NCBI RefSeq assembly: GCF_001457595.1
Contig: NZ_LN831039.1
Location: forward strand, 6,120,001 to 6,152,000
Length of the DNA stretch: 32,000 nt
From: Mycolicibacterium smegmatis
GTDB taxonomy: Bacteria; Actinomycetota; Actinomycetes; Mycobacteriales; Mycobacteriaceae
Direction of reading: 5' to 3'
Numbering within the stretch: position 1 is the first letter of the stretch; every line of letters begins with the position of its first letter. The position numbers and the translations under genes were made by a program. A model generated the notes under the pieces. That model worked only from the letters and a program-made list of their open reading frames with translations. It was not told where the DNA came from and did not search any database. Below are positions 1,416 through 19,563 of this stretch, one piece after another.

Positions 1416-2421
1416 CGAGCGCCTTGGCCAGTGCAGTGAGTTGGTCCACCTGCCAAGCCTCGAACGAATCGGCGCCAGGCGCCACCGTTTCGGTCACTTC
1501 GACCACCGGGATGCCCGCGCTCTCGGCCGCGGTGCGCAGCTGCTGCGGCACCGAGCCCTCGGTCTGGACGTTGTAGATGAGCACGTCCACGCCGCGGTTC
1601 TCCAGCAGGGTCAAAAACGCGTCGAAATCGGCGGGCGACGGGTCGGTCTCGTTCGACGAGGCGACCTGGTAACCGGGTGGGGTGCGGTCGGTCAGGCCGA
1701 CGGCCGCCGCCATGTCGTCGAACACCGCTTCGGTTGCCGCGTATGTCTTGCCGGAGGCCTTGGCCTTGATGTCGTCGATGAGCTGGTTGTACGGCTTCAT
1801 CGATTCGGTGAACGCCGCGCGCCGCTCGGCGAAATAGTCCTTGGCCTCCGGCGCCAGATCACCGAGTTTCGCGGTCACCTCGTCGGCGACGGTGGTCACC
1901 GCGGCCGGGCTGTACCAGGCGTGCGGGTTGACGCCCTCTTCCGCGTGCGCGTGGCCGTGTTCGTCGTGCCCGTGGTCATGGGCGTCGTCTTCGTGCGCAC
2001 CGGCGTCCGCGACGGCTGCGACGACAGGAGCATTCGGGGCCGAGCTTCGTGCGAGCTTGCCGGCCCACTCGTCGTAGTGGCCGCCGTTGATCACCACCAG
2101 CTGGGCCCCCTCGAACTTCGCCGCGTCCGATGGTGAGGGCTCGAAGTCGTGTGGGTCGACCGAAGAGCCCGCCAGCACGGTCGTCACCTTCGCGCACGCC
2201 CCGCCGAGCTCTGACACGATGTCGCCCCACTGGTCGACGCTCACGACGACGTTCACCGGTGTCGTCGGGCAGTCGCCCGCCGGCTCGGCCGTCGAGGATT
2301 CGTCGGAGCCGCATGCGGCAAGCGCAAAAGGCGCGGCAAGCGCGACGGAGACGGCCAGGGTACGCACGCTGAGAGGCGAGATCACGCCGATAACGATAAC
2401 CGTTTGCATTACTTGACGCAC
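1402..2421 (-). CDS. Metal ABC substrate-binding lipoprotein (ZnuA-like) with a His/Asp-rich loop
   Basis: Lipobox ALAACG and cluster A-I fold motifs (DPHDFEPSP, NPHAW). The acidic His-rich loop HEDDAHDHGHDEHGHAHAEE is typical of zinc-specific ZnuA. Start is GTG 2421 or ATG 2409. Confidence 0.88.
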   Translation of the reverse strand: MRQVMQTVIVIGVISPLSVRTLAVSVALAAPFALAACGSDESSTAEPAGDCPTTPVNVVVSVDQWGDIVSELGGACAKVTTVLAGSSVDPHDFEPSPSDAAKFEGAQLVVINGGHYDEWAGKLARSSAPNAPVVAAVADAGAHEDDAHDHGHDEHGHAHAEEGVNPHAWYSPAAVTTVADEVTAKLGDLAPEAKDYFAERRAAFTESMKPYNQLIDDIKAKASGKTYAATEAVFDDMAAAVGLTDRTPPGYQVASSNETDPSPADFDAFLTLLENRGVDVLIYNVQTEGSVPQQLRTAAESAGIPVVEVTETVAPGADSFEAWQVDQLTALAKALGVES

Positions 2422-2435
2422 ATCCGCATGATCTC

Positions 2436-2458
2436 TTATTGAAAATCATTTTCGATAA
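2436..2458. promoter_or_regulatory. Zur box (box A), shared by the divergent znuA-like operon and the COG0523 gene
   Basis: TTATTGAAAATCATTTTCGATAA is a near-perfect 23-bp palindrome and AT-rich in a ~67% GC genome. It lies in the 45-bp divergent intergenic region and matches the mycobacterial Zur operator core TGAAAATNATTTTCA as I remember it. Confidence 0.75.
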
Positions 2459-4838: not shown

Positions 4839-5741
4839 TCAAATGAGGTTGTTCGCAATGGTTTCGGTGTTGGTGCGCATCATCCCGAGATAGCTGTCCG
4901 CCTCGGTTCCCGGTGCGCTGAGCGATTCGCTGTACAGCGAGACGACGTTGACCCGCACCCCGGACTGCTCGGCGAGCACGCGCGCGAGACGGTCGGGCTG
5001 CGACGAGTCGACGAAGATGGCCTTCACACCCGCATCCCTGATGGCGCCGGCCAACGACTCAAGGTCCGATGCGCTCGGTGAGGCCAGTGTGGTGCCGCTC
5101 GGAATCACCGCGCCGATCACCGTGAACCCGAATCGGTCTGCGAGGTAGCCGAGTACGTGGTGGTTGGTGACGAGCTTGCGGCGCTGCGCCGGAATGGCCG
5201 CGAACCGGTCCGTCATGTGAGCCGACAGGTTGTTCAGCTCATCGCGGTAGCGCGCGGCGTTTGCCGCCACCGCGGCCCGATCGATACCGGGAAGTTCGGC
5301 CACGCGGCCGGTGATCGCATCGACGGCGAGGATCATGCGTTGCGGATCGGTCCAGAAATGCGGATCGGCTGCACCGTGCTCATCCGCGGAGAACTGCAAC
5401 GGATCGACGTGGTCACCGACAGGCAATGTGCGAACACCGTTTTCGGCTGCCGCATCGACATGGCGTTGCATCGACTCCTCCAGGCCCAACCCGTTGTAGA
5501 TCACCAGGTCGGCCCGGGCCATCTCGGCCGCGTCGGCTGCCGAGAGCCCATAGGAGTGCGGATCGGCGTTGGGTTTCATCATCACCCTGACATCGGCGGT
5601 GTCACCGACCACTTCCGAGACGACATCGCCCAGGATCGTCGTGGTGACGACGATCTGCCGCCTGCCGTCGCTGCCGTCGGGCGCACCGCACGCGGCGAGC
5701 AGCAGGATCGCCAGGCACGCCGCGATGCACCGCCGCGTCAC
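4839..5741 (-). CDS. Cluster A-I metal ABC substrate-binding lipoprotein (AztC/ZnuA/TroA-like)
   Basis: 300 aa from GTG 5741, which overlaps the upstream stop (GTGA). Lipobox LLAACG. Motifs NADPHSY, DPHFWTDP and TNHHVLGYLADRFG. The upstream 114 codons in the ORF track are Arg-rich and overlap the neighbouring gene. Confidence 0.85.
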   Translation of the reverse strand: MTRRCIAACLAILLLAACGAPDGSDGRRQIVVTTTILGDVVSEVVGDTADVRVMMKPNADPHSYGLSAADAAEMARADLVIYNGLGLEESMQRHVDAAAENGVRTLPVGDHVDPLQFSADEHGAADPHFWTDPQRMILAVDAITGRVAELPGIDRAAVAANAARYRDELNNLSAHMTDRFAAIPAQRRKLVTNHHVLGYLADRFGFTVIGAVIPSGTTLASPSASDLESLAGAIRDAGVKAIFVDSSQPDRLARVLAEQSGVRVNVVSLYSESLSAPGTEADSYLGMMRTNTETIANNLI

Positions 5742-7747: not shown

Positions 7748-7769
7748 TTAATGATAATCGTTTTCAAAA
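7748..7769. promoter_or_regulatory. Zur box (box B) between the divergent aztB-like and aztA-like genes
   Basis: TTAATGATAATCGTTTTCAAAA fills most of the 45-bp intergenic region and shares the core ATGAYAATCGTTTTCA with box E. Confidence 0.7.
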
Positions 7770-9905: not shown

Positions 9906-10292
9906 TCAGTTACGTCGAGCCGCCCTGGTCAGGTTGACATCGGCGCGCAGCCGCGGCGACAGCGTCTGGCTGTGCCATGACCCGTCGGTGATCCAATCGC
10001 ACGCGGCCCGAAGGTCACTTTCGGTCGCGACGGGGCCGATCCACTTCGCCGGACCAATTGGCCTTCGGTCCGCGGTGCACGGTTGCAGCATCAGGATCAC
10101 CCCGTGTTCGCGGCGGCGCGTCGCACACGTCAGCCCGCCGAGCAGGCAGCGGGTGACCACCAAGACGCCATGAGGGCAATCGCCGATCACCCCCGCCAAG
10201 GTCGGGACCAACGAGGAGACCGCAGAGGTGGTGCAGCCCGTGCAGACCGCCACGGTGAAAGGCCGGGCGGTCGGACACCCATCCGGTTTCAC
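9906..10292 (-). CDS. Cys-rich hypothetical protein (8 Cys in 128 aa; possibly thioredoxin-like ferredoxin or metal-binding fold)
   Basis: GTG start preceded by CAGGAGGG. Contains CTGC plus six further Cys. Divergent from mspD across a region with Zur-like boxes. I do not recognise a family with confidence. Confidence 0.55.
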   Translation of the reverse strand: MKPDGCPTARPFTVAVCTGCTTSAVSSLVPTLAGVIGDCPHGVLVVTRCLLGGLTCATRRREHGVILMLQPCTADRRPIGPAKWIGPVATESDLRAACDWITDGSWHSQTLSPRLRADVNLTRAARRN

Positions 10293-10375
10293 AAACCCTC
10301 CTGATCGGTGCGACGGAACGCGCTGTCGTCGCAGCCGGTCGAGACGAGCACCACCGGCGTACGCATCGCACCCCT

Positions 10376-10396
10376 AATCGGTAACGGTTTTCAACA
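10376..10396. promoter_or_regulatory. Degenerate Zur-box-like element (box C')
   Basis: AATCGGTAACGGTTTTCAACA resembles the right half of boxes B and E (TAATCGTTTTCAA). It lies ~85 nt upstream of the Cys-rich gene. Confidence 0.35.
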
Positions 10397-10428
10397 GGCG
10401 GGTCTCACGCTACAGTGCTGCGGAGCCC

Positions 10429-10451
10429 TTGTCGAAAACGATTTTCAATAA
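10429..10451. promoter_or_regulatory. Zur box (box C) upstream of mspD
   Basis: TTGTCGAAAACGATTTTCAATAA. Its reverse complement TTATTGAAAATCGTTTTCGACAA is nearly identical to box A. It lies ~105 nt upstream of the mspD start. Confidence 0.65.
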
Positions 10452-10556
10452 GTCGGCCGACCGAGGTCCTGTGACACCACCGATCCCGCTGTCCCCCAAG
10501 AGGAACCACCGAAGTGTGCGTTCCGCCCATCCTCCCGAAAGGACATCAACCCAATC

Positions 10557-11180
10557 GTGCGCTACCTCGTCATGATGTTCGCTCTACTCGTGTCCGTGAC
10601 GCTTGTGAGCCCCCGCCCTGCCAACGCGGTGGACAATCAGCTCAGCGTGGTCGACGGCCAAGGTCGCACGCTGACCGTGCAGCAAGCCGAGACATTCCTC
10701 AACGGCGTGTTCCCTCTCGACCGGAACCGACTGACCCGTGAGTGGTTTCACTCCGGCCGCGCCACCTACCATGTGGCCGGCCCAGGTGCCGACGAATTCG
10801 AGGGCACGCTCGAACTCGGGTATCAGGTCGGCTTCCCGTGGTCATTGGGCGTCGGCATCAACTTCTCGTACACGACCCCGAACATCCTCATCGACGGAGG
10901 CGACATCACCCAGCCGCCGTTCGGCCTGGACACCATCATCACCCCCAACCTCTTCCCCGGCGTGTCCATCAGTGCCGACCTCGGCAACGGTCCCGGTATC
11001 CAGGAGGTCGCCACCTTCTCGGTGGACGTGAAGGGCGCGAAAGGAGCGGTCGCCGTATCCAATGCGCATGGCACCGTGACCGGCGCGGCCGGCGGCGTGC
11101 TCCTGCGTCCGTTCGCCCGGTTGATCGCCTCGACGGGCGACAGCGTCACCACCTACGGCGAGCCCTGGAACATGAACTAG
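10557..11180 (+). CDS. mspD: MspD porin (Msp-family octameric outer-membrane porin)
   Basis: 207 aa. The mature part is near-identical to MspA (…LTVQQ..TFLNGVFPLDRNRLTREWFHSGRA.Y.VAGPGADEFEGTLELGYQ.GFPWSLGVGINFSYTTPNILID…TTYGEPWNMN) but carries roughly 18 substitutions, the pattern I remember for MspD rather than MspB or MspC. Confidence 0.9.
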   Translation: MRYLVMMFALLVSVTLVSPRPANAVDNQLSVVDGQGRTLTVQQAETFLNGVFPLDRNRLTREWFHSGRATYHVAGPGADEFEGTLELGYQVGFPWSLGVGINFSYTTPNILIDGGDITQPPFGLDTIITPNLFPGVSISADLGNGPGIQEVATFSVDVKGAKGAVAVSNAHGTVTGAAGGVLLRPFARLIASTGDSVTTYGEPWNMN

Positions 11181-13724: not shown

Positions 13725-13751
13725 CGGCCAAGCCTATCGCGAGTTAGTGGA

Positions 13752-13773
13752 AATGATAGTCATTGTTGACTAT
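13752..13773. promoter_or_regulatory. Two overlapping dyads (operator candidate; degenerate Zur box or another metalloregulator site) between pacL-ctpC and the PF03773 permease operon
   Basis: AATGA-TAG-TCATT (13752..13764) overlaps ATAGTCA-TTGT-TGACTAT (13756..13773, perfect 7+7). This is an AT-rich island. ATGATAGTCATTGTTGACT matches box B at about 12 of 19 positions in my manual alignment. Confidence 0.5.
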
Positions 13774-18374: not shown

Positions 18375-18546
18375 CCATTCCTCTCCGGGGAGATCCGCCC
18401 CAGACCCTGCGAGGTGGTGACTGCGGTGAGTGTCTGACTCTCGACGCCCCGCGGGCATCGATCACAGTGGCGGGACCGTGCCGGATTCGCACCGGCTTCC
18501 TCGATCCGCAGTCGCCTTCGGCACCGATGGTGTCATACCGCACGCC
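18375..18546 (-). promoter_or_regulatory. Cobalamin (B12) riboswitch
   Basis: The minus-strand RNA contains GGAAGCCGGUGCGAAUCCGGCACGGUCCCGCCACUGUGA (18500->18462), the conserved cobalamin aptamer core. It is followed by a B12-box-like GAGAGUCAGACACUC (around 18439->18430). The element ends ~20-60 nt before the ATG at 18367. Confidence 0.85.
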
Positions 18547-19538: not shown

Positions 19539-19563
19539 GATAATGACAATCGTTTTCAATAAG
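19539..19563. promoter_or_regulatory. Zur box (box E) between the divergent altRP operon and the mrf-like gene
   Basis: GATAATGACAATCGTTTTCAATAAG lies 33 nt upstream of the rpmB2 ATG and 17 nt upstream of the 19580 ATG. Its core is almost identical to box B. Confidence 0.8.

Follow-up and report, generated by a model that had tools for sequence, protein, structure and literature searches.

What keeps the porin gene mspD of Mycolicibacterium smegmatis silent in zinc-replete medium, and which of the two divergent genes around its upstream region is served by the operator-like palindromes found there, is the question raised by this locus. The DNA analysed, referred to as the window, is the whole stretch of 32,000 nucleotides and covers the M. 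smegmatis zinc island MSMEG_6045-6070. Pfam calls for the import genes comprise an ABC ATPase with ZnuA, a COG0523 GTPase, and a second ZnuA with an ABC-3 permease and ATPase; next to these a nitroreductase, a LamB/YcsF protein, a Cys-rich ORF without any domain and an MspA-family porin are found, followed beyond the porin by a P-type ATPase, an ArsP-type permease, and FecCD and binding-protein genes, while the remainder consists of an alternative ribosomal protein operon (L28, L33, S14, S18) and a second COG0523 gene. The two genes of direct concern are the following.

10557..11180, plus strand: mspD (MSMEG_6057), GTG start, 24-residue signal peptide, MspA-family octameric porin.
9906..10292, minus strand: MSMEG_6055, encoding a Cys/His-rich protein of 128 aa, GTG at 10292 with AGGAGG 4 nt before it.

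The product of ORF 10557..11180 matches Pfam PF09203 with 137.9 bits (cutoff 22.9; 4.3e-40), its leader peptide is hydrophobic, 24 residues long and ends in ANA, and residues 25-207 align with MspA (1UUN) at E = 2.6e-111 with about 18 differences, including D91G. Since these substitutions match the published description of MspD, the porin can be identified as MspD. Its gene is flanked by MSMEG_6055 on one side and by the P-type ATPase gene MSMEG_6058 on the other, and the intergenic gap of 264 bp towards MSMEG_6055 holds both of the Zur boxes considered here, which are listed together with the others of the window.

10430..10450, no strand assigned: strong Zur box TGTCGAAAACGATTTTCAATA, nearer mspD, 106 nt before the mspD GTG.
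10376..10396, no strand assigned: weaker Zur box AATCGGTAACGGTTTTCAACA, nearer the Cys-rich gene.
2439..2458: box A TTGAAAATCATTTTCGATAA, between znuA and the COG0523 gene.
2391..2411 and 2437..2457: strong Zur box pair (30.9 and 38.5 bits) in front of znuA/COG0523, the latter overlapping box A.
7749-7769: further strong Zur box in front of the second znu system.
19541-19561: further strong Zur box in front of the alternative ribosomal protein operon/mrf.

As strong Zur boxes also precede znuA/COG0523, the second znu system and the ribosomal protein operon/mrf, the window is the Zur island. An initial annotation of this DNA had placed a strong site, TTGTCGAAAACGATTTTCAATAA, at 10429..10451 and a weaker copy at 10376..10396, and both are present at exactly these positions; its statement that the reverse complement of the strong site departs from box A at just a few positions also holds, with 2 mismatches in 20, and no match to box A at three or fewer mismatches was obtained in 100 dinucleotide-preserving shuffles. 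Scoring was carried out with a 21-nt Zur-box matrix trained on six other published M. smegmatis boxes, both tested boxes being left out. The strong box reached 33.9 bits, compared with 30.9-38.5 for the other boxes of the window, and the weaker box 24.1 bits; when the real DNA surrounding 80 Msp genes from other species (654 kb) was taken as background, the top score was 18.0 bits, and among 20 mononucleotide-shuffled versions of the window a single one got to 21.5 bits. Furthermore, the two boxes are contained in a 28-nt direct repeat, 54 bp from start to start, and the strong box, read on its plus strand (CCTTGTCGAAAACGATTTTCAATA), violates none of the fixed positions of the 24-nt consensus published in PMC7174638. 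The weaker box is also more than chance, because the same pair occurs at the same spacing upstream of a Cys-rich homolog in an unrelated metagenome-assembled genome (L084, discussed below). Both boxes are statistically and phylogenetically real.

The control of mspD by zinc and Zur is itself already known. In the RNA-seq data of Goethe et al. (2020, mSystems, PMC7174638), mspD was up 435-fold in the zur deletion strain, with a 52-fold rise with TPEN and a 393-fold rise in the smtB-zur double mutant, and MSMEG_6055 was up 498-fold in the zur deletion and 28-fold with TPEN; the abstract of that paper already counts 'the porin MspD' among the Zur-controlled putative zinc transporters. In a second paper (Goethe et al. 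2026, Microbiology, PMC13098993), qRT-PCR showed mspD to be induced on TPEN treatment and when znuABC or zur was deleted, an effect that complementation reversed, and HA-tagging with electron microscopy demonstrated that tagged MspD responds to zinc and resides in the outer membrane. Moreover, the joint deletion of mspD and znuABC led to a rise in zinc-starvation markers, an accessory role in zinc homeostasis was assigned to the porin, and a model in which MspD feeds ZnuABC and ZnuABC2 is in print. The initial annotation had proposed that mspD is kept off by Zur as long as zinc is plentiful, and that MspD serves as an entry route through the outer membrane which is induced by zinc starvation and works together with the ZnuABC importers. 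Both proposals match these expression data on the one hand and the protein and mutant data on the other, and the activation of mspD in porin mutants, which it also mentions, is cited in PMC13098993 as 'backup porin' behaviour. Its remark that no such description was known does not hold, since regulation, function and both box sequences are in print; the zinc/Zur control of MspD is a correct rediscovery of what was published in 2020 and 2026. The architecture of the mspD locus was called unanalysed by Goethe et al. themselves.

In order to place the boxes with respect to transcription, promoters were sought in the intergenic region. A strict sigma-70 and terminator scan of 10200..10650 returned nothing; its thresholds are too strict for mycobacterial promoters, and the looser mycobacterial TANNNT rule was used instead, giving the following predicted elements.

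10411..10416, plus strand: predicted mspD -10 element TACAGT, the sole plus-strand TANNNT of 10293..10556.
10388..10393, plus strand: predicted mspD -35-like element TTTTCA, inside the weaker box, 17-bp spacing, 4/6 match.
10412..10407, minus strand: predicted -10 element TAGCGT of the Cys-rich gene, the sole minus-strand TANNNT of the intergenic region.
10435..10430, minus strand: predicted -35-like element TCGACA of the Cys-rich gene, inside the strong box, 17-bp spacing, 5/6 match.

We infer from these elements that two divergent promoters start from the spacer between the boxes, where their -10 elements overlap. Transcription of mspD is predicted to start near 10423, which would put the strong box at about +6..+28, and that of the Cys-rich gene near 10400, with the weaker box at about +4..+24; in the published transcription-start data (PMC6448022, PMC4633059), as far as the supplements were accessible, MSMEG_6055, 6057, 6048 and 6068 have no entries. 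On this arrangement we consider it highly probable that the two Zur operators repress both divergent promoters, that loss of zinc derepresses them, and that MspD feeds ZnuA and ZnuA2. When zinc is sufficient, zinc-loaded Zur (FurB) dimers would bind both boxes directly and shut both promoters. For mspD, the weaker box would cover the -35 region and the strong box would lie just downstream of the start, and for the Cys-rich gene the strong box would cover the -35 region and the weaker box would fall in the early transcribed region. As zinc falls, Zur would leave the DNA and both genes would come on several hundred-fold, and the extra MspD octamers in the outer membrane would pass zinc on to ZnuA and ZnuA2, the periplasmic proteins of the Zur-controlled importers encoded nearby. 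The fact that each box would lie over the -35 element of one promoter and the early region of the other fits the near-equal derepression of both genes. The strong box is directly followed, at 10452..10461, by a perfect palindrome of 10 bp, GTCGGCCGAC, which falls in the predicted mspD leader and of which the TCGGCC part is kept in L084.

The age of this arrangement was approached by comparison with other genomes, from the side of the porin and from that of the Cys-rich gene. The Msp loci scanned were the best 80 of more than 500 Msp matches (L001-L080), all from other Mycolicibacterium species, M. smegmatis not being among them; several of the Msp genes stand there as tandem copies. In none of the 80 is there a Zur box of at least 22 bits within 4 kb of the Msp gene, the best score being 18.0, so that Zur-controlled Msp porins are not a family-wide feature. 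In addition, no other msp locus is homologous at the nucleotide level to the region upstream of mspD, except in the near-identical strain L082, which has the same layout as the window. The homologs of the Cys-rich gene give a different picture: in all seven distinct contexts examined they lie in a zinc island with strong Zur boxes before the gene or operon. In L081 (M. houstonense), L083 (Mycolicibacterium sp. HK-90) and L086, the gene adjoins a ctpC-like ATPase with no porin nearby, and the boxes score 32-36 bits; in L085 it stands opposite a divergent znuACB, with a CobW_C gene downstream of it, and in L087 it lies downstream of cobW. The most informative case is L084, the Actinomycetota metagenome-assembled genome, where boxes equivalent to the strong one (4888..4908, 29.7 bits) and the weaker one (4942..4962, 28.0 bits) are found 54 bp apart directly upstream of the Cys-rich homolog. 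The core between the boxes, GCACTGTAGCGTGA, which includes both predicted -10 elements, is identical in the window and in L084, while the flanks diverge, and the divergent neighbour in L084 is a short-chain dehydrogenase, with no porin.

Since the box/-10/box arrangement is kept in L084 without a porin, the operator module would be older than its association with mspD, and since, in addition, the 80 other Msp loci are free of boxes, mspD has probably come to stand beside an older operator. The fuller reading, that the module is an old bidirectional Zur promoter of the Cys-rich family which mspD joined by position, in the M. smegmatis lineage only, is put forward tentatively, as somewhat less likely than its opposite.

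This history also bears on the rival explanation that survives best, according to which the boxes control MSMEG_6055 only; the response of mspD would then be indirect, with a secondary regulator or a general reaction to zinc starvation working on a separate promoter that lies closer to mspD. In favour of this explanation, the two-box module is ancestral to the Cys-rich gene and exists in L084 without a porin, and the published assignments agree with it: Table 6 of PMC7174638 lists the FIMO-predicted Zur boxes GCCTGTTGAAAACCGTTACCGATT (-239) and ACTTATTGAAAATCGTTTTCGACA (-293), which are the reverse complements of window positions 10376..10399 and 10430..10453, i.e. of the weaker and the strong box, and credits both to MSMEG_6055 and none to MSMEG_6057, mspD being left without the asterisk for a predicted site in the regulon tables. 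It is further favoured by the 106 nt that separate the strong box from the mspD start codon and by the later response of mspD, whose induction has a T1/2 of 17 min compared with 4-8 min for znuA, znuA2 and rpmG (PMC13098993), a delay that the two-operator promoter model leaves unexplained. Nevertheless, the fold changes of the two genes in the zur deletion (435 for mspD and 498 for MSMEG_6055) are nearly equal, the plus strand of 10451..10556, where a separate promoter would be expected, contains no TANNNT, the sole one lying between the boxes, and the fit of the strong box to the 24-nt consensus on the plus strand makes the omission of mspD from the table look like bookkeeping. We therefore regard exclusive control of MSMEG_6055 as unlikely. 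As to binding, Zur ChIP was confined to the smtB-zur promoter (PMC7174638), neither PMC7174638 nor PMC13098993 was found to report Zur binding to the mspD upstream region by EMSA, footprinting or ChIP, and a literature search on znuABC2 gave no further paper that assigns a Zur box explicitly to mspD.

A second possibility is that mspD is silent mainly for intrinsic reasons, because its promoter is weak, its ribosome-binding site is poor or its leader contains an 'insertion element', the Zur-like sequences being of minor weight. The only Shine-Dalgarno-like sequence is indeed a distant GAAAGGA at 10537..10543, 13 nt before the GTG, but the deletion of zur alone lifts the transcript 435-fold (PMC7174638), and the appearance of HA-tagged MspD on zinc starvation implies that translation is adequate (PMC13098993), which renders this explanation very improbable. 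The 5' leader has no Rfam match and the folding of 10423..10575 is unremarkable against shuffles (z = -0.76), so that no alternative cis-regulator is apparent. Least probable of all is that the palindromes are due to chance or serve some other regulator, for example SmtB or a different Fur paralogue, for while the one mononucleotide shuffle at 21.5 bits comes near the weaker box, the strong box stands at 33.9 bits with nothing at or above 22 bits in the 654 kb of related DNA, both boxes and their spacing are kept in L084, and only few genes respond to the deletion of smtB (PMC7174638).

Direct control of both divergent promoters from the two boxes remains the preferred reading, and it can be set beside systems already described. 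The closest is the M. smegmatis Zur regulon of PMC7174638 and PMC13098993, with identical locus, boxes, regulator and proposed function in support of ZnuABC/ZnuABC2; the boxes are credited there to MSMEG_6055, whereas overlapping divergent promoters and co-option by mspD are inferred here. The consensus of PMC7174638 derives from the boxes of M. tuberculosis Zur (FurB, Rv2359), where the same AT-rich palindrome of ~21 bp (TnnTGAAAAnnnTTTTCAnnA type) precedes COG0523 genes, znuA-like genes and those for alternative ribosomal proteins; as Msp porins are absent from M. tuberculosis (PMC13098993), a Zur-controlled porin has no counterpart there. Within the window, the divergent znuA/COG0523 promoter likewise has two Zur boxes in a short intergenic region with genes on both strands, although it differs in that its boxes are spaced by 46 bp instead of 54, both are strong, and the start codons are much closer. 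A similar logic, a Zur-repressed outer-membrane entry coupled to ZnuABC, is met in ZnuD of Neisseria and in a porin with ZnuABC in Synechococcus (cited in PMC13098993). This is a functional analogy only, since ZnuD is an energised TonB-dependent receptor, whereas MspD is a passive, non-homologous, octameric porin of the mycomembrane.

The divergent partner of mspD belongs to a small, uncharacterised Cys/His-rich family, whose full-length members have 125-131 aa and in which C17, C20, H41, C49, C56 and C72 are invariant. No Pfam domain was found in the protein, even at E = 10; its AlphaFold model is of moderate confidence (pLDDT 78), and when this model was compared with the PDB by Foldseek, no hit reached E <= 0.001 and the resemblances seen were weak and thioredoxin-like. 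The published label of MSMEG_6055 as a 'class I SAM-dependent methyltransferase' is supported neither by the Pfam nor by the Foldseek searches. From the offsets given in the literature, the annotated start of MSMEG_6055 falls at window position 10160, which corresponds to 84 aa; such a start would drop two invariant cysteines, whereas the GTG at 10292 with its AGGAGG fits the homologs. Judging from this comparison, MSMEG_6055 is probably annotated too short at 84 aa.

Two further observations concern other parts of the island. A degenerate Zur-like palindrome, TAGTGGAAATGATAGTCATTG, at 13745..13765 (16.1 bits) lies in the gap that separates the ArsP-type permease gene from the DUF1490/P-type ATPase operon (MSMEG_6059-6058). 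A better version, GAATGAAAATGATAGTCATTT, with 21.9 bits, occupies the equivalent position in three other species (L081, 8836..8856; L083, 8857..8877; L086, 7852..7872). The palindrome of the window is missing from the published motif table (PMC7174638). A 9-17-fold response of MSMEG_6058-6059 to Zur/TPEN has been reported, and this palindrome could be its source. The second observation is a cobalamin riboswitch at 18408..18543 on the minus strand (Rfam RF00174, 47.7 bits), which lies 4 nt past the stop of the alternative S18 gene. The riboswitch directly precedes the binding-protein/FecCD genes MSMEG_6064-6062, for which the literature gives the labels lipoprotein and 'Fe uptake system', and this position suggests that they form a B12-regulated importer. 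Their induction in the zur deletion may come from read-through of the Zur-derepressed ribosomal protein operon.

As regards the biology of the organism, a Zur-controlled porin represents a regulated outer-membrane step in mycobacterial zinc acquisition, a point already made and tested by Goethe et al. What is added here is that the boxes should also be credited to mspD, that a testable model of promoters and operators is available, and that Zur control of Msp porins is apparently lineage-specific. If the tentative origin proposed for the module is true, the 'backup porin' activation of mspD in mspA/mspC deletions could be Zur derepression resulting from the zinc starvation of porin-poor cells, and the uncharacterised Cys/His-rich 128-aa protein would belong to the core of the zinc-starvation regulons of actinobacteria.
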